Positions 19,941 to 44,298 of a DNA stretch of 51,168 nucleotides are shown here, piece after piece; within the stretch, counting starts at the first letter, position 1, and each line of letters starts with the position of its first letter. The DNA is taken from positions 1 to 51,168 of IMG/VR virus record IMGVR_UViG_3300023099_000120. One strand, 5' to 3'. A program made the position numbers and the translations under genes. The notes under the pieces were generated by a model that was not told the origin of the DNA, ran no database searches, and was given only the letters and a program-made list of their open reading frames with translations. Source of the stretch: a virus. Taxonomy: Duplodnaviria; Caudoviricetes.

Positions 19941-20461
19941 ATTTCTTCAAACTCATCGTATTCAAATTCATCCTCGCTAGGGTAATCAGGAATAAACACA
20001 AGTGGAATATCTAAATCGATTTGTGTAATAATTATCGCTTCTTCATATTTGGTAATTATCGGTTCCAGTAATGGTTTCAACTCAAAATGCTTGTCTTCAG
20101 ATTTTATAATCTGAGTTTCATTGTCGAGCCATTTTCCCTCTTTATTTTTAGCTTTCTGTACAACTTTTAAAATTTTGTTGTAAAGAATTTCAAGACACTT
20201 ATTGACGTGGTAATCCAAAACCTCAAATCCTTCTTCAAACAACTGAGTTGGATAACTGTAATTCGTCAATTCCATTCTGCTGTGTAGAAGCTGAGTGAAA
20301 TATTTTATATACAGTTGATTATCTATGTGTGCGTAATAATCTGTAGGATCATCGGATACTGGTCTTTTCATCTTTTCAGCTATCTTATCAAATACTTCTT
20401 GCTGCTTTGGGGTAAATGAGGATTTCTTTTCTTCCATGTTTATAATTTTATGCAGCTTCAA
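19937..20461 (-). CDS. Hypothetical protein in the SRAP operon
   Basis: Overlaps the SRAP stop; acidic tail. Confidence 0.75.
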   Translation of the reverse strand: MKLHKIINMEEKKSSFTPKQQEVFDKIAEKMKRPVSDDPTDYYAHIDNQLYIKYFTQLLHSRMELTNYSYPTQLFEEGFEVLDYHVNKCLEILYNKILKVVQKAKNKEGKWLDNETQIIKSEDKHFELKPLLEPIITKYEEAIIITQIDLDIPLVFIPDYPSEDEFEYDEFEEI

Positions 20462-21080
20462 AAGCCACTAATTTAGCTTCATAAGGAAATGCAAATCTAG
20501 ATACATCATTTGTAGGGTCAAGCCAAGCTTGCTCATCCTCTTTTCGAAGCATTACAGGCATCCTTTCTCTATTATTGTGAATGTATTTCATTAATTCGTT
20601 TGCTTCTGTCGTAACCATTGTATACGTCTTTAAACTTTCACCAGTTGACGGATTTAGCCAAGTATCATATAATCCTGCAAAACAGAAAATTTCATCGTTT
20701 TGAGAAAATATTTGATACTTTTCTTTCTTCTTCCCTTTGGGATCTAACCAACGCCATTCGTAATAGCCAGTCGCTATTATCAAACATCTATTTGACTTAA
20801 TGTTTCTATAAGAAGGTTTTGAATCAAGATCTTCTATTCTTGCATTTAGTTTGCCAGTTCTGAATTCTAACTGTTCAATACCTGCCCATGAAGGCATCAA
20901 GCCCCATGTAAAATCAGTTTGGACTTGATCGGGATCCGTATTTGTAATAATAGGAATGTTAGGATGATCAAATCCATTCACAAAAACACCTTCATAATAT
21001 TGGCCAGTATTGTTCACAGAAATATTAAAGCGGATCTTTACATCTCGGCGACTTCCTTTTTGATCTACATAGTAGCACAT
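20448..21080 (-). CDS. SRAP/HMCES (YedK-like) abasic-site crosslinking protein
   Basis: Met-Cys N-terminus, WGL.P.W, NAR.E, RCLI...GYYEW, FAGLY, IH..RMPV. Confidence 0.93.
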   Translation of the reverse strand: MCYYVDQKGSRRDVKIRFNISVNNTGQYYEGVFVNGFDHPNIPIITNTDPDQVQTDFTWGLMPSWAGIEQLEFRTGKLNARIEDLDSKPSYRNIKSNRCLIIATGYYEWRWLDPKGKKKEKYQIFSQNDEIFCFAGLYDTWLNPSTGESLKTYTMVTTEANELMKYIHNNRERMPVMLRKEDEQAWLDPTNDVSRFAFPYEAKLVAFEAA

Positions 21081-23962: not shown

Positions 23963-24003
23963 TAACATATTGTGCAATAAAATAATATATTGTACTACTT
24001 TTG
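23963..24003 (+). promoter_or_regulatory. Packaging promoter, copy 1
   Basis: TAACATATTGTgcAATAAAATAATA then TACTTTTG at 23996. Confidence 0.7.
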
Positions 24004-24022
24004 TATTGTTAATAGAATCACT

Positions 24023-24646
24023 ATGAAGATTAATAATTTGACTGAAAAACAGGAAGCCTTCTCAAATGCCTACATAAGAATAGGTGTAGGCTCGGAAGCG
24101 TATAAAGAAGCTGGTTATTCGTATTCAAACAAAAGCGATAAGTCAATTCATGAAGCCGCATGTAGAGTGCTAAACAACAGCAAGGTACAAGCAAGGATAA
24201 AAGAATTGCAATCTGTTGTGGCCGAGATTGCCGAAAAAGAATTTAAGATCACATCAGAAGAAATGCTTCGTCATTTGAATATTCTTCGTAAAGCGAGAAT
24301 CGATGAATACGTTGAATATTATGAGTACGAAGTTCCGATCACCACTACAACCGGAACCGGTAAGAATAAGAGTGTCTCAACGACAATTGAAAAGAGGACC
24401 GAATTGAGATTAAAGACTTTCGATATACTGAGTGAAGAGCAAAAGATGTGTATTGAAGGCATTAAGCAAACCAAATACGGCATTGAGATTAAACTTCACG
24501 GTAAGGAGTGGAGTATTGAAAAGATCAATAAGCACATTGGATTCTATGAAAAGGATAATGATCAAAAGAAAGCAACTTTGGAAATTGTGAACCCGGAAGA
24601 TCGCGATGCCAGGATCGCTGCTTTAAAAGCAAAATTGCAAAGCTAA
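24023..24646 (+). CDS. terS: Terminase small subunit
   Basis: LTEKQE.F...Y......AY..AGYS...A...L....V..RI.EL HTH pattern; IEIKLHGK...KHIGFYE. Confidence 0.88.
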   Translation: MKINNLTEKQEAFSNAYIRIGVGSEAYKEAGYSYSNKSDKSIHEAACRVLNNSKVQARIKELQSVVAEIAEKEFKITSEEMLRHLNILRKARIDEYVEYYEYEVPITTTTGTGKNKSVSTTIEKRTELRLKTFDILSEEQKMCIEGIKQTKYGIEIKLHGKEWSIEKINKHIGFYEKDNDQKKATLEIVNPEDRDARIAALKAKLQS

Positions 24647-24673: not shown

Positions 24674-24714
24674 TAACATATTGTATAATAAAATAATAAT
24701 ATATGTTAGCTTTG
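24674..24714 (+). promoter_or_regulatory. Packaging promoter, copy 2
   Basis: TAACATATTGTatAATAAAATAATA then TAGCTTTG at 24707; same spacing as copy 1. Confidence 0.7.
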
Positions 24715-26503: not shown

Positions 26504-28015
26504 ATGTCAACCATTACCGATGATGAATTATTAGAATTAGAATTCCTTGTGACTCAAAAAGAGTTGCAAGGAAGCCTTTTCGAATTCACAAAGGTGTTTT
26601 GGAATACCATTATTACAGATCAGTACGTTCATAACTGGCACATTGAATATATGTGCGATGAAATGCAGCTAGTTGCAGATAAATACGTTTTAGATCGTAA
26701 ACCTCATATACCAAATGATAAATGGTATCTTGGCATAACAGAAAACATACAAAAGAATTTACTATTTAATGTTCCGCCCGGGACTTCAAAAAGTACAATT
26801 GCATCAAGAATTCTTCCAGCTTGGATTTGGGCCGTTAACAGTTCCAAAACTGTAATGACCAATACCGTTTCAGCAAGTAACGCAAATGAATTCTCATCAA
26901 AATCAAAGGATATCATTCAAAGTGAACTCTTTCAATACTACTTTCCAACCGTCCAAATTAGGCGAGATGTATCTGCTAAGACCTTTTATCAAACTGCAGA
27001 AGGAGGAGTTAGATTTTCGTTTTCAACGTTTGGATCAGTAACCGGAAAGCACGCAAGTATCTTAATTGATGATGATAGAATGGACGTTGCGATCGCTGAT
27101 AGTCCAGCCGATCGTAAAAGAGCGATAAGTCAATTTAAAGCCTTTCAGACAAGGAAAAAAGATAAGGCTAAAACTCCTTACATTTTGGTAGAACAGAGGC
27201 TATCCAGTAAAGATACAACAGCTCATTGTCTTAGTGTATTCAAAGATGAGTGCCGACATATTTGTTTGCCGGCTGAAAATGTATATAGAAATATCGAGCC
27301 TAAGGAAATTGAGAATTTTTATATTGATGGTTTACTAGATCCTGTTCGTCTAAGTCCAGCAATTCTTAAATCTACAAAGATGGGTTTAACTGATGAATCC
27401 AAACCGATATCTGAAATTGCTTTTAATATCCAATTTAATCAGGCTAATGAAACAGCTGAAGGTTTGCTATATGGAAAGCTGAATTTTGTTCCAGCATTAC
27501 CAGAAAACCGAGAAGGTATAATCAGATACTCATTTACCGATGTTGCTGATACCGGAGCAGATTACTTTGCGACTCCTTTCATTGAGATCAATAAGAATAA
27601 AATCTATGTATTTGATGCGATCTATACTCAGGAACCGAGCAGGGTAACCTCGCATAAAATAAAACAAAAGATCGAAACTCATAATTCTATTGTCAACAAA
27701 ATAGAGGTTAACAACCAGGGAAGTGTTTTTGTGACCTTAATGCAAAGTATGGGCGTAAATGTTTCCGGATATTATAGTGAGGGGAATAAGGAGCAAAGAA
27801 TAAGTGCGTGGGCTCAATTTATTTCATTTATATACTTTGTCGAACCAAACGAAAACAGCAGCCAGGAATACAGGCAATTTATCAAACACCTTCAAGCATA
27901 TCCGTTGACTGGGAAGCATGATGATGGCCATGATGATGCTGAAGATGCTCTTACAGAAATGATGAGGTACATCTGGGCTAATATGCGTCACTTATTTATG
28001 CCTCAAACCAATTAA
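26504..28015 (+). CDS. terL: Terminase large subunit
   Basis: NVPPGTSKS Walker A, LIDDD Walker B, DVAD.G.DY nuclease motif, HDDAEDA. Confidence 0.93.
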   Translation: MSTITDDELLELEFLVTQKELQGSLFEFTKVFWNTIITDQYVHNWHIEYMCDEMQLVADKYVLDRKPHIPNDKWYLGITENIQKNLLFNVPPGTSKSTIASRILPAWIWAVNSSKTVMTNTVSASNANEFSSKSKDIIQSELFQYYFPTVQIRRDVSAKTFYQTAEGGVRFSFSTFGSVTGKHASILIDDDRMDVAIADSPADRKRAISQFKAFQTRKKDKAKTPYILVEQRLSSKDTTAHCLSVFKDECRHICLPAENVYRNIEPKEIENFYIDGLLDPVRLSPAILKSTKMGLTDESKPISEIAFNIQFNQANETAEGLLYGKLNFVPALPENREGIIRYSFTDVADTGADYFATPFIEINKNKIYVFDAIYTQEPSRVTSHKIKQKIETHNSIVNKIEVNNQGSVFVTLMQSMGVNVSGYYSEGNKEQRISAWAQFISFIYFVEPNENSSQEYRQFIKHLQAYPLTGKHDDGHDDAEDALTEMMRYIWANMRHLFMPQTN

Positions 28016-28033: not shown

Positions 28034-28076
28034 TTATTTAGAATAATTCTAAATAACAAAATTCTTTTTACATTTG
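28034..28076 (+). promoter_or_regulatory. Head/tail operon promoter with Fur-box-like palindrome
   Basis: TTATTTAGAATAATTCTAAATAA (28034-28056) and TACATTTG (28069-28076). Confidence 0.75.
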
Positions 28077-28098: not shown

Positions 28099-28362
28099 AT
28101 GACTAATCAAAATCTTGTTTCAAAAGCATTTACTGAGATCAAATGCCCTTGTTGTGGAAGACACTTAGACAAGGTTAAAGTGATTGGCGAAATTGCTATC
28201 TCAAGAAAGTGTAAATCATGCAAAAACAACATTGTTACGGAATTATTAGATAGTAAAATCACAAGTAACAAGATCGATGCTATTGAGAACTCTAAGGACA
28301 TTATAAGTCCCAATAGATTTTTAACTAACCGTAATCCATTCAAGGATAATCAAAGATCATAG
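28099..28362 (+). CDS. Mu Com-like zinc-ribbon protein
   Basis: EIKCPCCGRHL...I..KCKSCK..I. Confidence 0.6.
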   Translation: MTNQNLVSKAFTEIKCPCCGRHLDKVKVIGEIAISRKCKSCKNNIVTELLDSKITSNKIDAIENSKDIISPNRFLTNRNPFKDNQRS

Positions 28363-29552
28363 GCTTCTGGGAATCTTTAAGAACATTTAGATTTGGTATA
28401 GAAACCAAAAACGATTCGATTAATGGCCAGCCGGTGAGGATGGAAATTGATGTTTTCGGCATTGGTACTAATGATAAGAAAACATACTATCCTGATTCTA
28501 CAAAGTTCGTTAAGCTCCAAAAAGAGAATTACGTCTTAAATAATGTCTTCAATAAAATTGCCAGCAAATTATCAAGCGCACAATTTACTAGTGAATCCGG
28601 TAAAAGTGAACTTCTTGATAAAATCAATAATCCAAATGATTCACAGTCACGAGAAGAGTTCTTAAAAGAGTTTGCAATTTTTTTACTGTCATCAGGATGG
28701 ACCGCCATGTGGAAGAGATATAAATCATTTGGCAATTTCAAAACACTAGAACTTATCAATTTGAACCCGGATAACACGGAGGTCAACGAAACGACTTTAA
28801 CAACTGAAATAGATGGTAAGTCCGAAACAATCTTACTTACTGATGTGATTTTGTTCTATGATAGTGTAAGGAACAACAAAAACAAAAAAGGTTATTCCAG
28901 GATCACACCCTTAAGAACTCAGATCAACAATATTAAAGATGCACAGCTTGCAAAAGGAATTCAAATTGAGAATTCCGGAACAACAATAGTTTCGCCAAAA
29001 CAAACTGCTGCAGGTAGCAATATTGATGAAGGTCTTAATGCTCCAGTGCCACAATTGGGTGGAGGTCTTAGAACCCAAAAAGAAGAGATGGAAGATCGAT
29101 TTAGCAGTCGCGGTCTAGTGAATAGGATCATAGTTTCGTCTAAAGGATTGGATGCTAAAAACCTCTCTGCCGAGCTGAACACAGTTAAGTTTCATGAAAT
29201 CGTTGAAACTGATATCCTGGCTGTTTATGATGCTTATAATTTTCCGGTCGAGTTGAGTCCATATGGTAAGAATGCAACATTTGAAAATAAGGAAGTTGCT
29301 GAGGTTGGTCTTATTGAAAACGAAGTTTCTCCTCTGGCTGAGAACCTAATCAATTCATTAAATGCCGATTTCGAGAAAAAAGAACCGCTGGATGTTGATT
29401 TTAATCACTTGAACTCAATGTCAGTTATTCAGGAAAGGATCCAAACTACAAATGGTAAAACGATAGATCAGTATGGAATTTTATTTGACAAAAAAATCAT
29501 TACTGAAGCTGAGTACAAGGAGATAATGAAAACTAAAAAAATATTGACATGA
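28359..29552 (+). CDS. Portal protein (likely ATA start at 28359; alternatives GTG 28434, ATG 28440)
   Basis: Position after terL; IASKLS...NPN..QS..EF......L..G pattern of HK97-type portals. Confidence 0.85.
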   Translation: MGFWESLRTFRFGIETKNDSINGQPVRMEIDVFGIGTNDKKTYYPDSTKFVKLQKENYVLNNVFNKIASKLSSAQFTSESGKSELLDKINNPNDSQSREEFLKEFAIFLLSSGWTAMWKRYKSFGNFKTLELINLNPDNTEVNETTLTTEIDGKSETILLTDVILFYDSVRNNKNKKGYSRITPLRTQINNIKDAQLAKGIQIENSGTTIVSPKQTAAGSNIDEGLNAPVPQLGGGLRTQKEEMEDRFSSRGLVNRIIVSSKGLDAKNLSAELNTVKFHEIVETDILAVYDAYNFPVELSPYGKNATFENKEVAEVGLIENEVSPLAENLINSLNADFEKKEPLDVDFNHLNSMSVIQERIQTTNGKTIDQYGILFDKKIITEAEYKEIMKTKKILT

Positions 29553-29689
29553 AACATTTAGATAAAAAGTTGCCAAGCGACATTGAAAAGTTAAAAGCAA
29601 TTGCAGCAGAGACTGAGAATCCTCAAATGAAGCGTGCAATTGAAACCAGATTAAAAATAGTCGAGCGAGACCAAACTGTGAACAAATGA
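29549..29689 (+). CDS. Small hypothetical protein (46 aa; not in ORF track)
   Basis: ATGA overlaps at both ends. Confidence 0.75.
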   Translation: MKHLDKKLPSDIEKLKAIAAETENPQMKRAIETRLKIVERDQTVNK

Positions 29690-30585
29690 TTTACTGTAAA
29701 GAATTAGACCAGGATTTTGATAGTGTTAATCAAATGCATAAAGCAATTATCGATAACATTTCTAAAATAATTGATGCTAAAAAATCAATTTTAAAAATGT
29801 CTGATGGCTATGGAACTGTTGTTAAGGTTGAGGGAATTACAAAAGAAGTTTTGAAATCTCTTAAAAATATCACGGTTAAAGCTTTCAATCAAAGTGATAA
29901 GGCGGTCGATTATACTAAGGAAGCAGATTTGCCAAATATTATTGTGACCGTAGTTTCAAATACGACTAATTATTTTGATTCTCATTACGATGTGCATCTT
30001 GATAACATTTGGAACAAAACTATTTCAGACAATAAGAATGGTTTTGATCACCTTCAGGAGCATAAAAACGGCTTTGCTAATGTCATTTCTGAAAATTGTA
30101 AAACCAAAATTCTTAGAACAACTTTCAAGGAATTAGGCTACGATTTCGAAGGTAAGACTCAAGCTTTGCAGCACACTTCAATCATTGATCCGATCAGAAA
30201 TTTGTTCATGTATAACCAGTACGCTAATGGTTGGGTTAATAATCATTCAGTTGGGATGAGGTACAAAGGAGATATAATCTACTGTGCAAATTCAGAAGTG
30301 GATTACATGAAAGAATACAAAGATAATTGGGATAAATACTATCCATTAATCGCTAACAAGGATGATGTCGATGAAGTTGGCCGTTTTTGGGCGGTACCAG
30401 AAGCTAAATTAATGGAGTTTTCAGCTGTTCCGAGAGGTAGCAACCCGATTACTCCAACATTAAACATAGAAACACAAGCCGAAAAATCACTTGTTGGTAA
30501 TAAAGATCCTCAAGCCGATAAGTCACTTGAAACGCCGGAGTCGCTGGAAAGCACTCAAACTGACAAAAAGAGAAGATTTATTTAA
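29686..30585 (+). CDS. Prohead maturation protease (HK97-type)
   Basis: HLQEH, HSVGM, L.E.SAVP.GSN..TP; lies between portal and capsid. Confidence 0.8.
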   Translation: MIYCKELDQDFDSVNQMHKAIIDNISKIIDAKKSILKMSDGYGTVVKVEGITKEVLKSLKNITVKAFNQSDKAVDYTKEADLPNIIVTVVSNTTNYFDSHYDVHLDNIWNKTISDNKNGFDHLQEHKNGFANVISENCKTKILRTTFKELGYDFEGKTQALQHTSIIDPIRNLFMYNQYANGWVNNHSVGMRYKGDIIYCANSEVDYMKEYKDNWDKYYPLIANKDDVDEVGRFWAVPEAKLMEFSAVPRGSNPITPTLNIETQAEKSLVGNKDPQADKSLETPESLESTQTDKKRRFI

Positions 30586-30602
30586 TTTAAAAAACAAAAA
30601 TC

Positions 30603-31922
30603 ATGTTTGTAAAAAAGACACAAGCGCAAATTAATGCTATGACTGATGCAGAAGCTGACACATATGCAACCGAAAAGGCAGCACACGAGACTCAAGAAAA
30701 CAAAGCAGCCATCGATTCAGCTGTAAAGGCGGGAGTTGAAGCCCTTAAGACAGATTTAGATAAAACTATTGCTGAAAAGCAAAAGGAAGTTGACACTTTG
30801 AAAGAAACGGTCGAAACTCAAGGAGTTAAAATTGTTGAATTATCAAAATCAACATCTGAGGGTAAAATGGATTCATTGGAAAATCTTTTCAAAGAGAAAT
30901 ACGATGAAGCTGTATCCGGAGAATCGCACACAGTAAAAGAGGGCTTCTCAATGGATACCTCAAAGGCAATCGCATCTACTGATGTTATGTCAGTAAATAC
31001 GATTAATAGTACTGATTTCCCGGCGGCGGGTTCTACCGGAGTTGTTGGAGCGGGAGTTCAAACTTTGATGGGTAGATTGTTAGGTTATTTTGGTTACAGA
31101 AGTCCAGCATCTAAAATTCTTGATTTGGTTGATGTTCAACCTATGGATTCAGCTGTATTGATTGTGATCAATGAAACCGTAACCGGTACTGCAGAGATTA
31201 CCACTGAGTGTAAATTGAAGCCAATCGTTAAAGAAACTTTTGCCACACAAGAGAAATCAGCAGAGCCGGTTGCTGTTATGTGGTTCACAACTACAAAATT
31301 GAGAAGATTCTTTCCTGCATTGGTTAATCGTATGGTTCAGAAGTTCTCTGAATTGGTTAACGACAAATTGCCAAACGTTGTTTTAGACGCTGTAAAAGCT
31401 GGAGCATCTGCGTTTACGCCGGTTGCTGCATTAGCTATCAATAGCAATCCAAACAATTACGATGCAATGGGAGCTGTAATTGCAACAGTTGAAAACTTAG
31501 GTTTCAATGTTAGTGCATTTATGATGAATCCGATTGCGTGGAGAAACATGAAGCAAGAAAAGACCGCTGACGGTGTTTATACACTTCAAAACGGTCAATC
31601 TGTTAATATTCTTCAGAATGGTTTAGACTGGGGTGGTGTTTATATTCCGATCATCAAAGATTCTACTTTAGGAGTTGATGAGTTCGTAACCGGTGATATT
31701 TTCTCAACTGTAAAAGTTGGGGTAGATAGTGTGCTTATGTACATGGAGACAGATGGACGTACTGATGCTGTTGCAACAAATGCAGCTACTGGTCTTTCAA
31801 GAAACATCAGAACTCACGTGCTAGAGAAATTCTTCGCGGTGATCATTCCGGATGCAACTAAGATCGGATTGGTTAAAGATACTTTCACTAACGTGAAAAC
31901 TTTAATTACAAAGGCACCCTAA
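30603..31922 (+). CDS. Major capsid protein (HK97 fold)
   Basis: Coiled-coil delta domain, E...KP, MNP..W.....K..DG.Y. Confidence 0.88.
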   Translation: MFVKKTQAQINAMTDAEADTYATEKAAHETQENKAAIDSAVKAGVEALKTDLDKTIAEKQKEVDTLKETVETQGVKIVELSKSTSEGKMDSLENLFKEKYDEAVSGESHTVKEGFSMDTSKAIASTDVMSVNTINSTDFPAAGSTGVVGAGVQTLMGRLLGYFGYRSPASKILDLVDVQPMDSAVLIVINETVTGTAEITTECKLKPIVKETFATQEKSAEPVAVMWFTTTKLRRFFPALVNRMVQKFSELVNDKLPNVVLDAVKAGASAFTPVAALAINSNPNNYDAMGAVIATVENLGFNVSAFMMNPIAWRNMKQEKTADGVYTLQNGQSVNILQNGLDWGGVYIPIIKDSTLGVDEFVTGDIFSTVKVGVDSVLMYMETDGRTDAVATNAATGLSRNIRTHVLEKFFAVIIPDATKIGLVKDTFTNVKTLITKAP

Positions 31923-31928
31923 TAATAT

Positions 31929-31953
31929 CCAACCCCTGACCGGGTTGGTTTTT
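31929..31953 (+). terminator. Terminator after the capsid gene
   Basis: CCAACCC/GGGTTGG followed by TTTTT. Confidence 0.75.
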
Positions 31954-31978
31954 AAATAATCTAATAAAGACACAAATT

Positions 31979-32326
31979 ATGTTTACAGAAAAAACACCAG
32001 AAGAAATTGCTGCATTAAATCCAGAAGAGTTGAAAACTTATAATGCAGAAAAGAAAGCGCATGATCTCAAAGTCGCAAAAGATGCAAAAGATGCAAAAAA
32101 GAACGATAAAAGTGCTGGAGCAACGCAGGAGTATTACGATAAAAAAGGAGCTGAAACTTTAGAAAACTACTCAAAAGGCGGGAAAGCTGCAACTGTAGAT
32201 TTAGTTAATAAAACATTAGTTGAATTTACTGAGGATTTTGGCTATTTCAAAAAAGGTGATTCTCAGGAAGTTTCAGATGTAGCTTTTGCTATCTATAGCG
32301 GAAAAGGAGTTATCAAAAAACTGTAA
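31979..32326 (+). CDS. Head-associated hypothetical protein
   Basis: Position; N-terminus MFTEKTPEEIAAL resembles the capsid N-terminus MFVKKTQAQINAM. Confidence 0.65.
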   Translation: MFTEKTPEEIAALNPEELKTYNAEKKAHDLKVAKDAKDAKKNDKSAGATQEYYDKKGAETLENYSKGGKAATVDLVNKTLVEFTEDFGYFKKGDSQEVSDVAFAIYSGKGVIKKL

Positions 32327-32329
32327 TCT

Positions 32330-32947
32330 ATGTTTACCAGGATATCAAATTTCACTTACGGAGCATATCGCATTGCTAATATTGATACTGTTGGCGCCAA
32401 TAATAATATTGATCTAATTCTCCATATTCAAAAATATGAAAATGAATGTTTGAGATTGGTATTAGGCGAATGCTTGTATGAGGATTTGATGTCCAATGTA
32501 GAAAAAGATGCTGATGGCTATTACAAGTTAAAAGATTCTGTTGATGCAAAGTATGGTTGGCTCTTATTCGGTCATAAATATGAATACGATTGTTCTTGTG
32601 ATTCACAATGCAAAAACAAAATCTGGCAGGGATTGGTGAGAGAGGTTGCTGAAATCGAAAACACAAAGATTTTCGAAACAGTTATGTCCTCTTACATCTA
32701 TTTTAACTGGTCCTTAAACTATCGAACTCTTAATGTAGGAGTAGGAGAAGCAAAAGGTACTGCATCGAATACGGTAGTTGAAAATACAAGAAACAAACGG
32801 GTAGATGCCTGGAATAAAATGGTTCAGGATGTATCATTTGGATTTACAAATGCAAATGTTTCACTATACCAATTCTTAGATCATTTCAAAGATGATTTTC
32901 CCTCGGCCGAAAGAGTTTGTTTTAAAACAATGACCTATTATGACTAA
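32330..32947 (+). CDS. Putative head-tail adaptor
   Basis: Position; LVLGECLYEDL motif. Confidence 0.55.
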   Translation: MFTRISNFTYGAYRIANIDTVGANNNIDLILHIQKYENECLRLVLGECLYEDLMSNVEKDADGYYKLKDSVDAKYGWLLFGHKYEYDCSCDSQCKNKIWQGLVREVAEIENTKIFETVMSSYIYFNWSLNYRTLNVGVGEAKGTASNTVVENTRNKRVDAWNKMVQDVSFGFTNANVSLYQFLDHFKDDFPSAERVCFKTMTYYD

Positions 32948-33467
32948 ATTATTTGATCTGGATAACGCTTTAAAGCCAACAGCTGAAAAAGTAATGCATA
33001 ACAGTAAACCTGTTGCTTATAGTTGGGGAAATGAAGATGCTTTGCACAAGTGGATTGAGGCGATGAACAAAAGACAGCTGGCGAAATCACTTGGTATTGA
33101 CAAATCTATAAAGTATCCCTTGATTTGGTTAGTTGAAGGTTGGAAAGCAAAAGAAAACATTCCTGGTATTAAGTTCGAAAAAGTTACTTTCTACATTTCT
33201 TGTAACTCAACTGTAGCAGCTTTGAATGAAGATCGAGTTCCAAACTTTGATTTATTATATAAAGTTGCAAATGAATTTATAAAGGAATTGAGATTCGTAA
33301 TTAAGATTTCAGAAGAGTCAATTACTTATGAAAAGAAATCAAACTTTAGCACGGTCAGTAGCCGCCAGGATAAAAAAAGCATAACATCGGACGTTTGGGA
33401 TACTTTAATTGTTCAAATGGATCTGATTGCAAACACTAATTGTTTAAAAAAATTATGTAGTCTATAA
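32940..33467 (+). CDS. Putative tail completion/terminator protein
   Basis: Precedes the major tail protein; KYPLIWL. Confidence 0.5.
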   Translation: MTKLFDLDNALKPTAEKVMHNSKPVAYSWGNEDALHKWIEAMNKRQLAKSLGIDKSIKYPLIWLVEGWKAKENIPGIKFEKVTFYISCNSTVAALNEDRVPNFDLLYKVANEFIKELRFVIKISEESITYEKKSNFSTVSSRQDKKSITSDVWDTLIVQMDLIANTNCLKKLCSL

Positions 33468-33483
33468 AGACAAGAACCTATAA

Positions 33484-34362
33484 ATGGTTTACCAAGAATG
33501 TAAAAACAAAAAGAAAGCCAAAAAGAACACTGGTGCGAAAGAGCAGTGTCTTGAAGGGCTTACAATCAAAACGGCAGTCCACGTGCCGGGATTCTCTTTT
33601 GAATCGATAGCAGATGCAAAGGACAAAGCTAAATGGGATGCTGCAGTTGCTGCTAAGAAAGTAATTCCATTGTATGAGGTTGAAGAATTAGCATCTGCCA
33701 ATACTGAGGACACTGTTTTTGAAGGCAGAAGAAATCAGTTCATTACCTCAGAAGGTAAAAAAATTAGTAGTTATAACAGTTTTTTAAGTTTGTGTTCACA
33801 CTCAGCACTTAAAAGTTACCATAAATCTGAATTAGGCTTGTTCGAATTCACAGAAGATGGAGCAATCAAAGGAGTGATCAATGATGACGGAACTATAAAA
33901 GGCCAATCAATTGTAATGAACGTTGGAAAACGTATTGATCCTTTAGCAGATAGACCAGCATCAACAGGAGTTACTTTAAACTACAAAGACTTTAACGAGT
34001 TTGAAGATGATGGCGCAATCTTTCGTCCTGAAGGTTGGGGCGCTGATGATCTGTATGGAATTTTTGATATAACTATCAATCAGGTTTCAGCAACATCTAC
34101 AGAAATCAAATTCACTGCAACTGATGGTTGTTCCGGAGGCGATGAAGAGATCACTTCTTTCTTAGCTGCTAATATTGTGGTTAAAGATCTTGATGGAGCT
34201 ACAGAAAGTGTAACGTTTGTTCCTGCTGATTCTGAAGGTGTTTACACTGTTACCGGAACCGGATTTGCAACAGGATTCACTATTGGCTTAAATGGAGTGG
34301 TTACCCAAACCGGGACTTCATATGAGACTCCAGAACCTACAAAAATTAAAGTTACACCATAA
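33484..34362 (+). CDS. Major tail tube protein
   Basis: Position, 292 aa, C-terminal Ig-like Thr/Gly-rich domain. Confidence 0.7.
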   Translation: MVYQECKNKKKAKKNTGAKEQCLEGLTIKTAVHVPGFSFESIADAKDKAKWDAAVAAKKVIPLYEVEELASANTEDTVFEGRRNQFITSEGKKISSYNSFLSLCSHSALKSYHKSELGLFEFTEDGAIKGVINDDGTIKGQSIVMNVGKRIDPLADRPASTGVTLNYKDFNEFEDDGAIFRPEGWGADDLYGIFDITINQVSATSTEIKFTATDGCSGGDEEITSFLAANIVVKDLDGATESVTFVPADSEGVYTVTGTGFATGFTIGLNGVVTQTGTSYETPEPTKIKVTP

Positions 34363-34589
34363 TGCGAGGTGAATACAAAGGGATAGTATTTGCAGAGGGC
34401 TATAACAAGCCCTTTGCAGATTTTAAAAAAGAGTTTGCTTCAACTCATGTTTTTAAAGATATCCCATCCGACGAAAGAGAAGCCGAACTAAAAAAAGCTC
34501 ACAAAATCGCAACCAATGGCAACATTTCAACAACAACTGGCAAGGGCAAAGAAGTTGAAACCGAAAAGCCTGGAGATAAACCTTTATAA
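34362..34589 (+). CDS. Hypothetical tail-region protein
   Basis: TAATG-coupled to the tail tube gene. Confidence 0.65.
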   Translation: MRGEYKGIVFAEGYNKPFADFKKEFASTHVFKDIPSDEREAELKKAHKIATNGNISTTTGKGKEVETEKPGDKPL

Positions 34590-34974
34590 ATTCATTAGAA
34601 GTATTGAAAAGGATTTTTTAGATCTCGAGAAGAAAAGGTTGTCTGTTGATCATAAAGACATTTTCGGAAATCCGATTGGTTTTTATTCAGAGAACACAGA
34701 AATCATTTCAGGAGGTAGAAAAAAAGCCGGAGATCCATTTACCGGATTAGATTCTGGAGATTGGTTCAAAGGATTCTATATGCAAGAAGTTAATGGTGTT
34801 TTGAGATTTAGTTCTAAAGACCCTAAAAACTCAATCATCCTGAGTGATGGACCTGACAATACTTGGCTTTCTGATGAATTATTCGGATTAACTGATAAAG
34901 AATTAAAGGAAGTGATCACATCTCGATTGCTTCCTTTTTTTATACAAAACGCGCGAAAAATACTTGAGCTATGA
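34516..34974 (+). CDS. Virion morphogenesis/neck protein
   Basis: G..I..YS..T...DSG.W...FGLT pattern. Confidence 0.55.
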   Translation: MATFQQQLARAKKLKPKSLEINLYKFIRSIEKDFLDLEKKRLSVDHKDIFGNPIGFYSENTEIISGGRKKAGDPFTGLDSGDWFKGFYMQEVNGVLRFSSKDPKNSIILSDGPDNTWLSDELFGLTDKELKEVITSRLLPFFIQNARKILEL

Positions 34975-35570
34975 TTTACGATTCACTTGACATAATTCCT
35001 TATAAAACATTTTTCAAGATCGCTGAATCTGGAAATTTCGCTTTGTTATCTGATACTGAAAAGGATCCGGAAGTACTGTCAAAAATATGGGATTCTCTAT
35101 ATGAACAACATATTGAAATTGCGGGGGCCAGTTCTCAGGAAAAGAAAACTTTTAGAATTTCTAAACAGATCAGCGCTTTGGAAACCCAATACAAAGTGAT
35201 TCTTATGGCTTGTGATGCATTAAAATTTGATTTTAGTCAAGAACTGTTCGAAATACTAACTGTTGACTACGGCTATACTTTAAGAACTACAGATGAAAAA
35301 GTTTACTACGAAGACATTGAACAAATTGAAAGAGAATCGAAAGCGCTTAAAGTAAAAATAAACACTCTTTCTAAGCTGCTTCCTAAAGTTGATCAAGGGC
35401 AAGAATATAACATCGATGATGTGATGGCCTCGTATTGTTCCATCCTAGAATTTCAAATTGGGGACTTCAATAAGATCACTTATACAGCTTTTCATAGTTA
35501 CGAAAAGCAGGTGCACAACAAGATAGAACACATCAGACAACAAAACATTAAAAGTAAAAAAAATGGCTAG
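34971..35570 (+). CDS. Putative tail assembly chaperone
   Basis: Helical acidic ORF immediately before the tape measure gene. Confidence 0.5.
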   Translation: MIYDSLDIIPYKTFFKIAESGNFALLSDTEKDPEVLSKIWDSLYEQHIEIAGASSQEKKTFRISKQISALETQYKVILMACDALKFDFSQELFEILTVDYGYTLRTTDEKVYYEDIEQIERESKALKVKINTLSKLLPKVDQGQEYNIDDVMASYCSILEFQIGDFNKITYTAFHSYEKQVHNKIEHIRQQNIKSKKNG

Positions 35571-38500
35571 TTCAGACGGTATAATTAGAAGAAAGCAGGT
35601 CATTGAAGATGATGCTCTTAATTGGGGGCCTGAATATGCAAAGCAAACTCAAATTGCTATTGATAAAAACAAAGAGGTTGTACAAGGGATTGTTCAAATT
35701 GCATCTATCCTAAAACAAATTAAAGATGCAACTGGTAATTCTGCTTATACAGCTGCACTTCAACAAGGAATACTGGCTACGCAGAAAACTATACTTAGTC
35801 TTAAGGAGCAGGAAGCAGCTGAGATTTCTCTAAATAGAGTAAGGATTTCTTCAATAGCTTTATCAGAAGCTGAACGAAAGGCAAAATTAGCGATTGAAAA
35901 TGCTGAAAGCAAACTGCAAAAATCAAAGGATGCGTTAATAAAGAAAACTGCTCAAGAGATATATGACCAAAGTGTTCTGACCAGAAATGCTAAGAATTTA
36001 GCAATAATAAATTCTAAATTATCAACTGAATATGAAAAATTAACTGCTAAGAAAAGATTAGCAGCTACTGCACTTCAGAATCTTATAATCGCTGGTAAAA
36101 AGGCAGATGAAACCACGGATCAGTATAACGCTCGATTGAGAAAGGCGCAAGCTGAATTTGATGCGCTTCATAAAAAGGTTGTAGCAGCGAATAGAGCTGT
36201 CAGTATATTTAATGACAATGTTGGTAATTATCCTAAGAATGCTGCGAAAGGGTTACGTGATTTAGTCGAAGCGTTTGGGTTGGTTGTAGGTATTCAAACC
36301 TTTGTAGATATTGCTAAACAAGCTTTCGATATTATAAGAAATTTTGAAGCTGAGATCGTAAACTTAGCTGCTATTGCTGGAAAAAGCCGTGCTGATATTG
36401 CGCCGTTAGAAGCAGATATTAGAGAGGTAGCAAAAGCAAGTATTAACAGTGCAACGGAAGTTGCAAAGTTGGCTACAGAATTAATTAAATTAGGTTCTAC
36501 TCCAGAAGAGGTTTCCAAATTACTTAAGCCGGTTAATGATTTATCTATTGCATTACAAGCAAGCGCTGAGGATAGTGCGACTTTAGTTAAATCGCTTTTG
36601 AATGCCTACCAAGAAGGCGCTGAAAAGGCAACTCACTTTACCGATGTATTAGCAGAAAGTGCAAATAGATCTGCATTAGATTTTGCAGGTTTAAGAGATT
36701 CATTTTCTTATATAGCGCCTGTTTCAAATACATTGGGAATTTCTGTTGAAAAGACAGCTGCCATCATCGGTACACTTACCGATAATGGAATTAAAGCTGA
36801 GAGCGCTGGTCGTTTGATGGCAACTGGTTTGGGGAAACTTGCAAAACAAGGACTTACTCTTGAAGCTGCATTGGCTAAAATCACGACGGCTCAGAAGCAA
36901 AATAAGTCAAGTATGGAAGTGCTTAATATCGCAAACAAGCTATTTGGAGGCGAAGCAGGGAAATTGGCTTTGATTTTGGCAAACAATACAAAAAAAATAG
37001 AGGAAAGCACTTTAGCTTATCAAAATAGTAATGGAGCATTGGCTGAACTTACTGACAAACAATTAAAGTCTTTAAACTCTGAATTAGAAATTCTTTCATC
37101 TGCCTGGGAAGAATATATATTGGATAACAATGAGGCGATTGGAGGAACTAAGGTTATGACCTCAGTTCTTAGCTTTTTAAGTTCTAATTTAAAAGAAATT
37201 ATAGATCTACTTGTGTTTTCCGGAACAATTTGGCTTGCGTATAGATCATCTTTGATTCTTGCTACAGTACAGGCAAAGTTGATGGCATTGACGACTGTGG
37301 AAAATACAGTAGCTACTGCAGCATCGACTGTTGCAACTACGGCATCAACTGTGGCAACAGATGTCAATACTGCTGCTCTTTTATTTCATTTGGAAGGATT
37401 GGAAGCAAATGCGAGTGCACAACTTACAAATGCGACTGCTACCAATACTGCGACAACTGCGACTCAGAAATTTAACGCAGCATTAAAAGCGAATATGCTG
37501 AGCATAATATTAGTTGCGCTTATTGCGGTGATTTACTACTACAATAAATTAACAAAGTCATTTGAACAAAACTATGAAGAGCTTAAAAAAAGCACATCTG
37601 AGTTTCTAAAAAATAAAGCCGTAACAGATAAAAATGCAAAATCAATCAATGATTTGTCTGATAGATATGATGTTTTGAAAGCGAAAACTAAATTATCAAC
37701 TGAGGAACAAAAGGAGCTGAATAAAATAATTGAAATTCTAGCAAAAACAGTACCTGGAGCAACCTCTAAAATGGATAAATATGGAAACGCCATTGCCATA
37801 AATACTGCTAAAACCAGAGAATATGTAGAAGCAAGAAATGAAATGTTTAAAGCGGAAAATGCTGTGAAATTGGATAAAAATATCGCACTGCTGAAAGATT
37901 TAAGGAAGGAACAAGATTATCTAAATGTTTCAAGTGATAAAAATAACGGTTCACTAGTCGAAGGAATTGGATATGTAGTTAAAATGGATGGAGTACTTAA
38001 AAAAAGGGGAAATACTTTTCAAGGCTATATTGATCTAACAAAAGAGGATATTGCTCTTTATGCTCGAAAAAGATTTCAGAATGAGGAAGCTATTGCTAAT
38101 ACAATCGCGCATATAAATGCATTGCGAGGATTAACAGATGAACAAAAGAAAGCAATTGCGTTAAGAGATAAAGAAGCGAAAGATACTGCTGACAATGGGC
38201 CGCGTACAATTGCAATAATTGATGCCGAGATAAAAGCTCAGGAAGATCTCATCGCAACATTATCTGATAAAACTGGTAAAGAAGGAAACGTAATAAAAGC
38301 AAAAATTAAAGCTTTAAATGCTGAACGAGACTTGATTTATAACAATAATAAAGGTCAGGAAAAGGATAATGAAAAACAGATTAGAAAGCAATTAGAGCAA
38401 ATGAAACGTATTCGTGACGCTATTTATAATCTAAATCAGTTTCGGCTACAAAATGCTATTGATATCAATCAGCAGATTCTTGATGATGAAAAGACTTCCA

Positions 38501-39999
38501 GCGAGCTTAAGCTAAATGCCTATATCGAAAATGAACAACTTCGCAAAGAGAAAAATGATGAAACGTTACAGTACGAATTATTTAATAACGCGCTAGAAGG
38601 TAAAGAATTAGAAAAGCTAACAGAGAAAAAGAGAAAGCTTTTCTTCCAGTCAAGTAAAGATCGTGTTGAAGCTATCATCGCCGGTAAAATCGCAACTGAA
38701 GAGATGACCAAATCAGAGTTGCTGATTTTGGAAAAGCATAACGCAGAGAAAAAAAGACTGGAGTACCAGGGAGCAAAAGATCGTCAGAAGATTATTGATG
38801 GTGAAGTTGATCGAGTGAAAAAGCGAATTGACGATGAGATTCTTAAAAAAGAAACTCAAATAAATAAGGCTATTGAGGCAGAGAACAATATGTTTAACGA
38901 AATCAATAAGGCAGAGAATCAATCGCGGAAAGAAAGGGAAATAGCTATTGAAGCGCATGAGCGAAAAATTTATGAGATTAGAAAATCCTTTGCCTTAGAT
39001 GCTTTAAAAGTCCAAATTGATGGTTTGCAAAAGGAATTAGACAAAGAAGCTTCAAGAGTTGATGGTGCAAAAGTTAGCGCTGATGTATTAAAAAAAGTTG
39101 AATTTGATTTACAGAAAGCAAAAACCGATTACTCGGATCTTTCCTATGAACAATATTTAGACCTGAATAAGGACAAAATTGAGCAAGAAAAATATACTGC
39201 TGAAAAGATTTTAGAAGTTTCTAATGAACTTACAAATTCATTGTCTAATCTAACTAACGCGATTTTCGACGCCAAGATTCAAAATATAGAATATGAGCAG
39301 AAAAAAAACGATGAGTATTATGCAAAACAAATTGAGTTAGCTGGTAAAGACGAACGTCAAAAAGATATTCTTCAAAAGGAACGTGATAAAAAGAATGATC
39401 TCTTAGAGAAAAAGAAGCGTAAAGAGCAAGAAAAGCAAGCCATATTTAACAAGGCACTAACGGTTGCTCAAATAGGATTACAGACGGCTTTAGCAATCAT
39501 TACAGCAGCTGCAGCAACTGCACCAACGTTTTGGGGAGTTGCTATTGCGGCCACTATTGGAGCAGTTGAACTTGGAGCAGCTCTGGCAACTCCAATCCCT
39601 AAATACAAAGATGGTCGTAAAGGAGGTCCGAAAGAAGTTGCAATGATCAATGACGGTGGAGTTACTGAGATCGTGGAATCTAAAGATGGATCTGCTAGAG
39701 TGTATTCAGGGAAGAATCGAATTGTTCAACTTTTGGAAGGTGATACTGTACATAAATCCTTTGATGATTATAACAAATTGCAAAGAGCTGCTATGTTGGC
39801 CAGTCTCAACATGGAAGGCAGAAACATGAGCGATTTCCAAGCTTCTCAATATTTTGAAGCTTCTTACGGTAAAGAATTGCTTGAAGAAATGAAATTGACA
39901 AGAAAAGCTATTCAGAATCAGAAACAGCCAGTTTACCACGGACCTAAAATCGATATTCCTCACGCTATTTGGAAATCAAAAAACACTAATTGGAACTAA
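35563..39999 (+). CDS. Tape measure protein (TP901 family)
   Basis: 1478 aa, Ala-rich helical; SATEVA...L.K.G, DVLA.SANRS, L.DNGIKAE.AG. Confidence 0.93.
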   Translation: MASSDGIIRRKQVIEDDALNWGPEYAKQTQIAIDKNKEVVQGIVQIASILKQIKDATGNSAYTAALQQGILATQKTILSLKEQEAAEISLNRVRISSIALSEAERKAKLAIENAESKLQKSKDALIKKTAQEIYDQSVLTRNAKNLAIINSKLSTEYEKLTAKKRLAATALQNLIIAGKKADETTDQYNARLRKAQAEFDALHKKVVAANRAVSIFNDNVGNYPKNAAKGLRDLVEAFGLVVGIQTFVDIAKQAFDIIRNFEAEIVNLAAIAGKSRADIAPLEADIREVAKASINSATEVAKLATELIKLGSTPEEVSKLLKPVNDLSIALQASAEDSATLVKSLLNAYQEGAEKATHFTDVLAESANRSALDFAGLRDSFSYIAPVSNTLGISVEKTAAIIGTLTDNGIKAESAGRLMATGLGKLAKQGLTLEAALAKITTAQKQNKSSMEVLNIANKLFGGEAGKLALILANNTKKIEESTLAYQNSNGALAELTDKQLKSLNSELEILSSAWEEYILDNNEAIGGTKVMTSVLSFLSSNLKEIIDLLVFSGTIWLAYRSSLILATVQAKLMALTTVENTVATAASTVATTASTVATDVNTAALLFHLEGLEANASAQLTNATATNTATTATQKFNAALKANMLSIILVALIAVIYYYNKLTKSFEQNYEELKKSTSEFLKNKAVTDKNAKSINDLSDRYDVLKAKTKLSTEEQKELNKIIEILAKTVPGATSKMDKYGNAIAINTAKTREYVEARNEMFKAENAVKLDKNIALLKDLRKEQDYLNVSSDKNNGSLVEGIGYVVKMDGVLKKRGNTFQGYIDLTKEDIALYARKRFQNEEAIANTIAHINALRGLTDEQKKAIALRDKEAKDTADNGPRTIAIIDAEIKAQEDLIATLSDKTGKEGNVIKAKIKALNAERDLIYNNNKGQEKDNEKQIRKQLEQMKRIRDAIYNLNQFRLQNAIDINQQILDDEKTSSELKLNAYIENEQLRKEKNDETLQYELFNNALEGKELEKLTEKKRKLFFQSSKDRVEAIIAGKIATEEMTKSELLILEKHNAEKKRLEYQGAKDRQKIIDGEVDRVKKRIDDEILKKETQINKAIEAENNMFNEINKAENQSRKEREIAIEAHERKIYEIRKSFALDALKVQIDGLQKELDKEASRVDGAKVSADVLKKVEFDLQKAKTDYSDLSYEQYLDLNKDKIEQEKYTAEKILEVSNELTNSLSNLTNAIFDAKIQNIEYEQKKNDEYYAKQIELAGKDERQKDILQKERDKKNDLLEKKKRKEQEKQAIFNKALTVAQIGLQTALAIITAAAATAPTFWGVAIAATIGAVELGAALATPIPKYKDGRKGGPKEVAMINDGGVTEIVESKDGSARVYSGKNRIVQLLEGDTVHKSFDDYNKLQRAAMLASLNMEGRNMSDFQASQYFEASYGKELLEEMKLTRKAIQNQKQPVYHGPKIDIPHAIWKSKNTNWN

Positions 40000-42260
40000 T
40001 GGGAAATATAAATCCACAATTTAACAACCGTGTTGAATACACCTTAAAAAATAAAAATTTTGGGGAGTTGGTAACTATCGAGCCGATCGGATGGACTGAT
40101 GATGATAAGGAATATTCACGTCATGAAAAGTATGACGGAATAGTCGCTAAGTTTTCCAACTCATTGAAGTTCATCGGTGATGCTGCAGAGTATATTCAAC
40201 TGATTTATGATATCGACGGGATTATGGCCGATGTCGAATTGACTCGAAGAGAGAGACATCCGCAAACTGACGTTTGGACATTGACTTATTCTGGCTTTTT
40301 AGATCTTTCAACCTGGAGTAGAGAAAATAGAGTTCAAGTGATGGTTAAATTCAATTCCGGGGGATTAGAACAGGAACTAAAAGCCAGGGAATCCGAAAGC
40401 GTGGAAGTTGATCGAACTACAACATTTGATGACACTAAGATTCCCGAATTGAATACAATCGATGTTGAATTAGATGGTAGACGAATTTTTCTGCAAACAA
40501 AATTTGCAACTAAGGCAAGTGATAATATAGCAAAATTAAGTAATCAAACAAACGGTAATACTAGAGGTAGTACGATCGCTGTTCCTCTTTCATTGGTAAA
40601 TAAGTCACATGAAAGTGCGCAAGCTCCAGTTCAAGGTGTTTTGGTTGGTGATAATACTTGGGATAGAACAGGAAAAGCAGAACCTGGAAACTTGTTTTTT
40701 GCCATTTCCGATCGTGATCGCGACTTAAAAGTAAGTTTGAAACTTACTTTTAAAGTTAATATTATTTCATTCGACGATGTTAATCATTTCACTTTTTATG
40801 CCAGAATAGGTAAATATAAAGATGGTATTGACTTCAATTTTAAGGAAAATATCATGTTGTTTTCTAAAGATTCTTACTCGACTTTAAATGGAAATACATT
40901 CACGGTAAATTATGATGGAATTATATCAGTTCTAACAGGAGAAAGTTTGCAATTGGTTTTTGATCAAAATTACGATGGTAGGAATGGACATAGTTCACAT
41001 TTGGAAATTACAGTTTCCGATGTTGTTTGTAAAGTTGATATCGACGAAGATAGTTTTCAGGAAAAATCTACAACAAAAGCAATTTTGGCTTATGAATTAG
41101 CTGATCGCTTAGTTACAATTTCAACGAACAAAGAGCGCGTATTTTATTCTAATTATTTTGGTAGAAAAGATTTAGGATATGCAGTTGATGGACCCGGAGC
41201 TTATATTGCTTTTACTCATGGTTTTTGGGTTAGAAAGTTCGACAAGCTTCCGATTCCACAAGAAGAAACTATCACTCAAGATAAAGTTACCAATCTATTT
41301 AAGCCATTGACAACATCATTCAGTGATTTTGCGACTTCTACCACTGCAGTCTTAAATATCGGAATTGGTATCGAAACAATTGATAATAAGGAAGTCGTAA
41401 GAATTGAAGAAAAAAGTTATTTCTATAATCGAAACGTAACTATAAGGCTTCCTAATCAGGTAAAAAATGTAAAAAGAAAAGTAGCTACCGACAAGTATTA
41501 TTCTGCTTTAGAATTCGGCTATGAGAAAGGTGGCGATTATGAAGAAGCGGTTGGACTGGACGAATACAATGTGAAATCTAATTTTTCAACGATCATCAGC
41601 AGACTTAAAAATGTTTATATCCAAATCTCAAAATATAGAGCCGATAGTTATGGAATGGAGTTCGCCAGGAGAAAACCTGTCACATTAAACGATACTGAAG
41701 ATACTTCTTATGATGAAGATATTTTCTGGTTAGACCTGTTTAAGAATCCAATCGGAGGATTTGAACAAAGATTTTGGTTTAATAAATACGATCGAACAAA
41801 GGATGATTTCGAGCAAGCTCCAACTGGTATATTTAGCCCGGAGACAGCCACAAATTTAAGATTCTCACCAGTTAATTGTTTATTGCGACATGGTTGGTGG
41901 ATAGCAGCTTCAGTAATTAAATACGCAACTGATAAATTGAAGTTTGGTTCATCTACTGCAAACAGATTGCTAAAAACAAAGATGATTGGCCGCAATGAAT
42001 ATGCTGAGAATGGTGATATTTTGAATTCAGAATTGCCAACTGCTCGTTTTATTCCGGAGGAAATAGAATTTGAACATATTTGTGATTTTGATGTTCTGCA
42101 ACAGATCAATGGTACCACAACAATCTTAGGTAAAGAAATAATAAATCTATACGGTTTGATTGAATTTATAAATGAAAACGGCGAAAAGGAGAGAGCTTTC
42201 TTCTTGAACATAAAGCCTAACGGAAAAGGTCAGTTTAAAGTTTTAAAACTAAATAGATAA
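39999..42260 (+). CDS. Tail tip/baseplate protein
   Basis: ATG overlaps the TMP stop; IEPIGW..D N-terminus; beta-rich. Confidence 0.7.
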   Translation: MGNINPQFNNRVEYTLKNKNFGELVTIEPIGWTDDDKEYSRHEKYDGIVAKFSNSLKFIGDAAEYIQLIYDIDGIMADVELTRRERHPQTDVWTLTYSGFLDLSTWSRENRVQVMVKFNSGGLEQELKARESESVEVDRTTTFDDTKIPELNTIDVELDGRRIFLQTKFATKASDNIAKLSNQTNGNTRGSTIAVPLSLVNKSHESAQAPVQGVLVGDNTWDRTGKAEPGNLFFAISDRDRDLKVSLKLTFKVNIISFDDVNHFTFYARIGKYKDGIDFNFKENIMLFSKDSYSTLNGNTFTVNYDGIISVLTGESLQLVFDQNYDGRNGHSSHLEITVSDVVCKVDIDEDSFQEKSTTKAILAYELADRLVTISTNKERVFYSNYFGRKDLGYAVDGPGAYIAFTHGFWVRKFDKLPIPQEETITQDKVTNLFKPLTTSFSDFATSTTAVLNIGIGIETIDNKEVVRIEEKSYFYNRNVTIRLPNQVKNVKRKVATDKYYSALEFGYEKGGDYEEAVGLDEYNVKSNFSTIISRLKNVYIQISKYRADSYGMEFARRKPVTLNDTEDTSYDEDIFWLDLFKNPIGGFEQRFWFNKYDRTKDDFEQAPTGIFSPETATNLRFSPVNCLLRHGWWIAASVIKYATDKLKFGSSTANRLLKTKMIGRNEYAENGDILNSELPTARFIPEEIEFEHICDFDVLQQINGTTTILGKEIINLYGLIEFINENGEKERAFFLNIKPNGKGQFKVLKLNR

Positions 42261-42263
42261 GTC

Positions 42264-44291: not shown

Positions 44292-44298
44292 AAGAAGA

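Follow-up and report, generated by a model that had tools for sequence, protein, structure and literature searches.

Each of the two late promoters of the virus record IMGVR_UViG_3300023099_000120 carries a palindrome that matches the Fur box published for Riemerella. On balance, we lean towards reading both palindromes as host Fur-family operators that would gate the two late transcription units, closed while Fur is iron-loaded, and the output of the phage is probably tied to the iron state of its host. The record (hereafter, the window) is an IMG/VR provirus of 51,168 bases from which the host flank is absent. The observation itself is solid, and the identification of the sites as genuine host Fur-type operators is strong, judged from the sequence. 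The two boxes and the promoter elements that belong to them are:

28034-28056 (centre 28045), palindromic: box 1, a perfect 23-bp palindrome, TTATTTAGAATAATTCTAAATAA
28069-28076, plus strand: -7 element of the box 1 promoter, TACATTTG, which fits the Bacteroidetes TAnnTTTG; 23 nt before the ATG at 28099
44576-44598 (centre 44587), palindromic: box 2, TTATTTAGAATGATTCTAAATAG, whose inner 21 nt (44577-44597) are the perfect palindrome TATTTAGAATGATTCTAAATA
44611-44618, plus strand: -7 element of the box 2 promoter, TACATTTG; 22 nt before the ATG at 44640

The palindromes of box 1 and box 2 are identical save for the central base, and the first T of TACATTTG stands 24 nt from the palindrome centre at both promoters. 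This is the arrangement described by the first-pass annotation of this DNA (paired palindromes differing at the central base, 24 nt upstream of an identical -7 element), and both the coordinates and the shuffled controls bear it out. Bacteroidetes promoters combine a -33 TTTG with a -7 TAnnTTTG at a spacing of about 19 nt. At both promoters of the window the corresponding -33 TTTG/TTG position (about 19 nt upstream of the -7 element) reads TTC and lies within the right arm of the box; each box extends from about -46 to about -24 of a promoter of Bacteroidetes type, in which the -7 element is good and a canonical -33 is missing. The name of the Bacteroidetes -7 element and the -33/-7 rule are both mentioned in PMC5609570. 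With at most one mismatch to TTTAGAATNATTCTAAA, exactly these two sites were found in the window and 0 of 100 dinucleotide-preserving shuffles matched; with at most three mismatches there were four window sites, a number within chance (shuffle mean 2.49; 27 of 100 shuffles reached 4), indicating that the signal consists of the two perfect copies and not of a loose family.

Both boxes match the published 19-bp Fur consensus (ATTTAGAATnATTCTAAAT) at 18/18 specified positions. The Riemerella Fur box, which the first-pass annotation had named, is printed as 5'-ATTTAGAATTATTCTAAAT-3' in the results and discussion of PMC5609570 (predicted box of R. anatipestifer); the same article reports that Fur shifted four promoter fragments and lists imelysin and TonB receptors among the Fur-regulated genes. 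It is not consistent with itself, the abstract printing an E. coli-type box and the results ATTTAGAATTATTCTAAAT, and PMC7976709 repeats the E. coli form for Riemerella. Two further reports place the box in promoters repressed by iron and Fur: the rhuB promoter holds ATTTAGAATTATCCTAAAT, was bound by Fur in electrophoretic mobility shift assays (EMSA) in the presence of Mn2+ and loses its repression when fur or iron is lacking (PMC10986502), and deletion of the Fur box at the rhuH-rhuR promoter derepresses rhuH (PMC11967795). The palindrome is the same 19-bp one and Riemerella belongs to the same bacterial order as the likely host of the window. However, the Riemerella boxes are imperfect and stand before host iron/haem uptake genes, whereas the window has perfect copies, placed ahead of virion and lysis operons, and the likely host of the window belongs to Flavobacteriaceae, another family than Riemerella.

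Flavobacterium is the likely host genus, as judged from related prophages: relatives of the window TerL with 77-83% identity were found in two uncultured Flavobacterium genomes (G001 and G002), both of which carry syntenic prophages. Motif counts were compared with those of the reversed motif, the genus-wide control figures being tallied by hand. At up to two mismatches the counts were mildly informative (24 matches versus 9 in the control for G001; 25 versus 8 for G002); 22 of these 49 sites were intergenic by the open reading frame (ORF) criterion, with mixed neighbours, and the only exact matches in the two genomes were the two late promoters of the G002 prophage. A genus-wide search with a 17-mer, allowing one mismatch, gave sites in 164 of 201 Flavobacterium genomes, 377 in total (754 rows, each site appearing on both strands) versus about 92 for the control. 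Among 30 sampled sites, 29 were intergenic and one was inside an ORF. The neighbouring genes, assigned by Pfam or by ORF length and context matched to a scanned orthologue, were: hemA with a divergent AraC-type gene (n=4); sufS (n=3); TonB-dependent receptors (n=3); a multihaem cytochrome c with a small SPOR-like gene (n=3); nqrA with a T9SS plug gene (n=2); and, once each, imelysin with DUF4856, katG, a thioredoxin/AhpC-like gene, DoxX, DUF3817, an acyl-CoA carboxyltransferase, a GEVED protein and a 117-aa gene without family match. The remaining sampled sites were one prophage fibre promoter and five without annotation. Judged by these neighbours, the Flavobacterium box set is an iron, haem and oxidative-stress regulon. 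In the likely host genus the motif thus marks promoters of TonB-dependent receptors, imelysin, sufS, hemA, katG and cytochromes, an outcome in favour of the first-pass annotation, which had named absence of the motif from host iron-uptake promoters as refuting.

Beyond the 17 nt that were searched, 28 host sites favour TTA...TAA flanks (A 43/56, T 37/56, T 35/56). Both phage boxes carry these host flanks, and box 1 equals the host-regulon consensus, flanks included. At sufS the box begins 2 nt beyond the -7 element, where a repressor would be expected; host boxes are found at varied distances from their -7 elements. Pairs of hits 14-19 kb apart (G087, G092, G014, G172) were considered as extra prophages and rejected, as they are host sites with no homologue of a window protein detected beside them; several occupy the same place in two genomes (G087 with G092, G092 with G014).

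The feo locus required a separate analysis of 30 Flavobacterium genomes. In most of the feoB loci (L063-L092) the feoA promoter has TGATAATTATCA, or a near variant, upstream of TAnnTTTG. TGATAATTATCA was rejected as the true Fur box of feoA, since its neighbours elsewhere (L156-L172: hemN-like radical SAM genes, n=3, a Crp/FNR regulator, a cbb3-type cytochrome c, Usp, a thioredoxin and an MFS transporter) mark an FNR-type regulon; it likely denotes an FNR/Crp regulon in Flavobacterium, which would make the leader repeat the Fur-type element at feoA. This leader, downstream of the -7 element, holds two tandem AATCTAAAT units, with the TCTAAATAA core in 29/30 loci. At feoA the box is thus present as a divergent tandem form (29/30 loci). 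The same leader form as at feoA precedes a TonB receptor (L041) and DUF4856 (L106).

There is no Fur-family gene in the window. One Fur-family gene was found in 30 of 41 Flavobacterium genomes, two in 10 and none in one; G001 and G002 have one each, on contigs other than that of the prophage. The Flavobacterium protein is nearest to solved Fur proteins (E 9e-20) and then to PerR (2e-13), with all NCBIfam Fur models below their cut-offs. The boxes have the 7-1-7 arrangement with an AATnATT core, which we take to be the form of a Fur-family site. We assign them to Fur because of this site form, the content of the regulon, the single conserved regulator and the Riemerella experiments; the Fur-box-like identity proposed earlier is well supported by the Riemerella consensus, EMSA and box deletion, together with the Flavobacterium regulon.

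Conservation in related prophages, put forward earlier as a check, was found: box and -7 element are invariant in eight late promoters of six aligned phages (window, G002, G008, L129, L143, L144), at a mean column identity of 58%. Other relatives have symmetric variants of the box, e.g. TTATTTATAAACATTATAAATAA, of a kind that host sites tolerate too, and within one phage both late promoters share one variant (G207 has TTTTTAATTATTCTAAA twice). Outside the family, the exact 21-mer was present in at least 118 IMG/VR stretches and the reversed control in none. Eighty of these stretches were compared at the locus level, and a homologue of any window protein was found in only 26 of them. At 25 viral sites a -7 element lies 23-26 nt from the box centre and the genes downstream vary (fibre-like, or a gene of about 220 aa starting MAVKPE...). 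In 12 loci without a detected homologue of a window protein, the box precedes a 230-aa gene, and in Nonlabens phages the homologue of that gene lies directly next to the terminase gene; in four loci the box overlaps the -7 element before a small gene. The presence of the same box in phages without detectable kinship points to a host factor. In some viral contigs for which no homologue of a window protein was detected, boxes or box-like repeats are clustered, at least two of them within about 60-100 nt (L251 at 1026 and 1087; L257, L272; L230).

A perfect consensus operator in a cell that has the cognate regulator should be bound, and its retention in many phages suggests that binding is used. 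A metal-loaded Fur dimer on the box would occupy the place at which RNA polymerase has to touch the -33 region, and from this position repression by metal-loaded Fur would be the simplest effect. The gate would cover the portal, head and tail unit and the fibre, holin and endolysin unit, closed with iron-loaded Fur; loss of the metal from Fur (iron shortage, oxidative damage) would open it, and so would replication of the phage DNA to numbers above those of Fur. Three steps of this reading we infer: Fur as the binder, repression as the effect of binding, and the need for a further phage factor before the promoters fire.

Several observations weigh against occlusion by Fur as a full account. 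The spacing between box and -7 element is fixed (23-26 nt in 25 viral sites) while host boxes vary; fixed spacing is what one usually sees with activator sites or promoter elements. No box was found directly upstream of fur (13 loci, up to three mismatches), and the host genus itself is deduced from prophages (TerL 77-83%) in two Flavobacterium genomes. Moreover, sister phages whose structural genes are the same as those of the window form a short class, in which the corresponding promoter place is taken by a 17-bp palindrome without the AATnATT core, TTATTTAG-n-CTAAATAA. They carry this form twice, the proximal arm being at the same distance from the -7 element as in the full box:

Short-class sites: about 30750 and about 46650 in G001:C14; also in L131, L134, L136-L138 and L141

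The 17-bp form is not enriched in hosts (112 sites versus about 105 in the control, 101 genomes), and its sole exact copies in the 101 genomes are a pair 14.8 kb apart (G049:C8, 246896 and 261735). Being confined to phages and lacking the core that defines a Fur site, the short form implies a phage factor for the short-class phages. An early, unannotated ORF of the window (575-850, plus strand) co-occurs with the perfect-box class: it was found in 3/3 perfect-box relatives (G203, the G002 prophage, G206), and neither short-class genome and neither of the two variant-box records has it. Should a phage factor act at the box, this ORF would be a candidate. The contrast in gene content covered six long-class and two short-class genomes, a sample too small for much weight, and revealed nothing regulator-like specific to the two short-class genomes.

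The lysogeny region of the relatives also bears on the reading. A third, near-consensus box lies 11-14 nt upstream of a cI-like start codon in four relatives:

cI-leader boxes: about 91631 in G002:C3; about 4457 in G001:C14; about 1322 in L212; about 1509 in L210

Repression by Fur of cI and of the late genes alike would not make an obviously coherent circuit. Beside the cI-leader box, the switch region of the relatives contains three copies of a different palindrome, ACATAAC-N2-GTTATGT, a triple repeat that looks like the true immunity operator. Examined as a CI/Cro immunity operator, the late-promoter site was not repeated as a cI-cro operator, one Fur-type box being found near cI. CI was rejected as the binder of the box: the switch of the relatives has its own triple operator, and the prophage of G001 has a different CI with a leader box of the same kind. 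The window starts just to the right of the switch region, which places its own cI outside the record. Fixed spacing, the short phage-only palindrome and the cI-leader box mean that Fur occlusion is not the whole story. From the spacing, the missing -33 and the short class, something else also acts at these promoters; furthermore, with Fur action alone, in either direction, some lysogens would have no lock on their lysis genes, which calls for another layer of control.

Much of this would suit a phage-encoded late activator that binds the dyad in the manner of P2 Ogr or Mu C and recruits RNA polymerase to promoters without a -33 element, the likeness to the Fur box being secondary or reflecting competition with Fur. 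In those phages too, each late promoter has its copy of a conserved dyad, set at a constant distance from a core promoter whose upstream element is poor, and here the narrow spacing at the 25 viral sites, the invariance of box plus -7 in eight promoters and the TTC in place of TTG at -33 follow the same pattern. So do the use of one variant at both late promoters of a phage (TTTTTAATTATTCTAAA in G207, and likewise in the short class), the phage-only short form, the co-occurrence of ORF 575-850 with the perfect box, and the small zinc-finger-like protein encoded by the first gene behind box 1. We nevertheless judge such an activator unlikely. The dyad equals the host regulon box, unlike those of P2 and Mu, and a chance coincidence with a 22-position host consensus, flanks included, would be required; the exact box is also present in phages that share no detectable protein with the window. 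No activator gene was identified in the window: none of its scanned ORFs, a set without those between 1230 and 10716, matched a family of DNA-binding proteins or regulators, no match to sigma-70 region 2 or region 4 exceeded the family cut-off in the window and four relatives, and the short class has no regulator-like gene of its own.

The fixed spacing and the absent -33 would also fit a host Fur that activates the late promoters in place of the -33 contact and represses at the cI leader, where the box (11-14 nt before the start codon in four relatives) has a repressor position. The two sites would then form one coherent switch, with iron-replete cells favouring lytic growth and iron-starved cells lysogeny, and the host boxes far upstream of the -7 element near iron-using genes (spacer of 46 nt at cytochrome c and 59 nt at katG) are a hint of activation. 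To our knowledge, Fur activates directly only where its site is further upstream; at a centre near -35, the dimer would get in the way of the very polymerase contact it is to replace, holo-Fur is present in healthy lysogens so that the lysis genes would need another lock, and the cI region is outside the window. We regard this arrangement as quite improbable. A non-Fur host regulator co-opted by the phage, such as an undescribed iron/redox regulator of Flavobacteriia, seems to us very improbable. The Flavobacterium motif is tied to Fur by inference only, the 13 fur loci have no box, uptake genes stand in the regulon alongside iron-using and peroxide genes, and there is a precedent in MliR, a non-Fur iron regulator of Flavobacteriaceae (PMC9478572), for which the passages searched give no site. 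Against it stand the Riemerella EMSA, fur mutant and box deletion, which tie this type of box to Fur, and the single conserved Fur-family gene of nearly all genomes. The site also has what is presumably the Fur-family form (7-1-7, AATnATT core).

Fur control of genes carried by phages has precedents. The stx1 gene is phage-borne and under Fur control. A Fur box also precedes sitABCD on lambdoid coliphages (PMC6969025). In both cases, as here, a host Fur site on a phage genome links phage-borne genes to the iron regulon; however, those are cargo genes that serve the lysogen, whereas the boxes of the window head late morphogenesis and lysis operons. The first-pass annotation had known of no case for core morphogenesis operons, a claim that needs softening, as two cases are published, yet without a demonstrated direct operator. 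Structural and lysis genes of a P2-type prophage rise in a Yersinia ruckeri fur mutant, direct control by Fur being explicitly left open and an SOS route considered possible (PMC13607417), and a Clostridioides difficile prophage operon with a predicted Fur site goes down in a fur mutant (PMC6311696). These share with the present case a prophage whose expression would respond to Fur; unlike here, neither study describes paired consensus operators at late promoters or conservation across phages. In the literature searched (subscription journals being outside its coverage), nothing was found on Fur operators at phage late promoters or on the late promoters of Flavobacterium phages.

A different parallel is offered by LexA, which acts in the switches of CTXphi and of the Bacillus phage GIL01. 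There too, operators for an abundant host stress-sensing repressor occupy key promoters of the phage and a host signal decides development, but development responds to DNA damage and the operators lie on early or lysogeny promoters, in contrast to the iron/redox signal and late promoters proposed here. The co-option of a host global regulator by phages is therefore known in kind, and the operator on core late promoters would be the new part. As a tentative and rather unlikely extension, several lineages of Flavobacteriia phages without detectable kinship may each have placed perfect, better-than-host Fur operators before the operons for packaging, virion and lysis, one family having added a further operator at the cI leader, which would make the iron/redox sensor of the host a master input to late expression. 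The phage copies are of consensus strength and multiply with the genome, so replication itself could titrate Fur.

If this is true, titration of Fur would time late transcription while derepressing the iron-uptake receptors of the host. A consensus Fur operator on the core late promoters would in itself let the iron/redox state feed directly into the making of virions and into lysis. TonB-dependent iron receptors often serve as receptors for phages. Cases in which host global regulators guide temperate phages by way of DNA-damage or quorum signals are already known, and Fur is known for phage cargo; Flavobacteriia are dominant in turning over organic matter in waters and soils, habitats often short of iron. 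As a by-product, the analysis provides a first computational outline of a Flavobacterium Fur-type regulon, set apart from the FNR-type box, and two 60-bp promoters with one regulator constitute a cheap and concrete test system.

The genes around the two promoters are arranged in the window as follows:

28099-28362, plus strand: Com-like gene, first behind box 1; 87 aa with a CxxC...CxxC motif, zinc-finger-like (PHROG translational regulator, E 0.007)
28434-29552, plus strand: portal (Pfam Phage_portal, 70 bits; cut-off 39.1)
29686-44291, plus strand: head and tail genes of the first late unit, comprising the capsid candidate, the tape measure and virion proteins
30603-31922, plus strand: capsid candidate, weak label (Pfam sub-threshold, 16 bits versus 24.2)
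35563-39999, plus strand: tape measure, by family annotation
39990-42260 and 42264-44291, plus strand: virion proteins, by family annotation
44298-44323, both strands: bidirectional terminator hairpin, ending the tail operon and the small divergent gene and splitting the tail genes from the second unit
44328-44531, minus strand: divergent small gene; 67 aa with one hydrophobic N-terminal stretch, then the His-rich tract VHHHHYHD
44640-47456, plus strand: fibre-like protein starting MSFQSF..., labelled from its position and a sub-threshold DUF5907 match
47478-47897, plus strand: holin, by family annotation
47907-48383, plus strand: endolysin, by family annotation
48385-49002, plus strand: spanin-like protein, weak, by family annotation
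50008-51168, minus strand: integrase, by family annotation

The gene context given by the first-pass annotation stands for portal, tail, holin and endolysin, which are annotated; com-like, capsid and fibre have only weak labels. The protein encoded at 28099-28362 had no Pfam match, and its label derives from the PHROG match (E 0.007) and a protein-atlas lead. The portal has 25% identity to the annotated portals of Tenacibaculum and Leeuwenhoekiella phages, the sole cultured relatives found, which are distant. Homologues of the fibre-like protein lie behind the same box-promoter cassette in other phages. TerS (23990-24646) is upstream of TerL (26504-28015, PHROG) in the window; no terminator was detected in the interval between TerL and box 1, making read-through into the first late unit possible.

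On the divergent side of box 2, where the 67-aa gene lies, there is an TAAATTTG element on the minus strand (44543-44536), 44 nt from the box centre. Family searches gave no match for this protein (44328-44531), and an atlas look-up gave a lead only. Homologues of this His-rich protein, with longer His runs, adjoin the box in relatives; it may be a metal-binding cargo gene controlled by the same box.

The phage also encodes a PcfJ-like protein, a DNA polymerase III beta clamp, an SRAP (SOS-response-associated peptidase) and a thymidylate synthase (10720-13211, 20448-21080, 49084-49830), the thymidylate synthase gene adjoining the integrase. A different repeat, TAACATATTGTnnAATAAAATAATA, occurs twice (23963-23987 and 24674-24698; matches in 0/100 shuffles), each copy directly upstream of a TAnnTTTG (at 23996 and 24707), and heads TerS and the next gene block; these repeats look like a separate, perhaps middle, promoter class.

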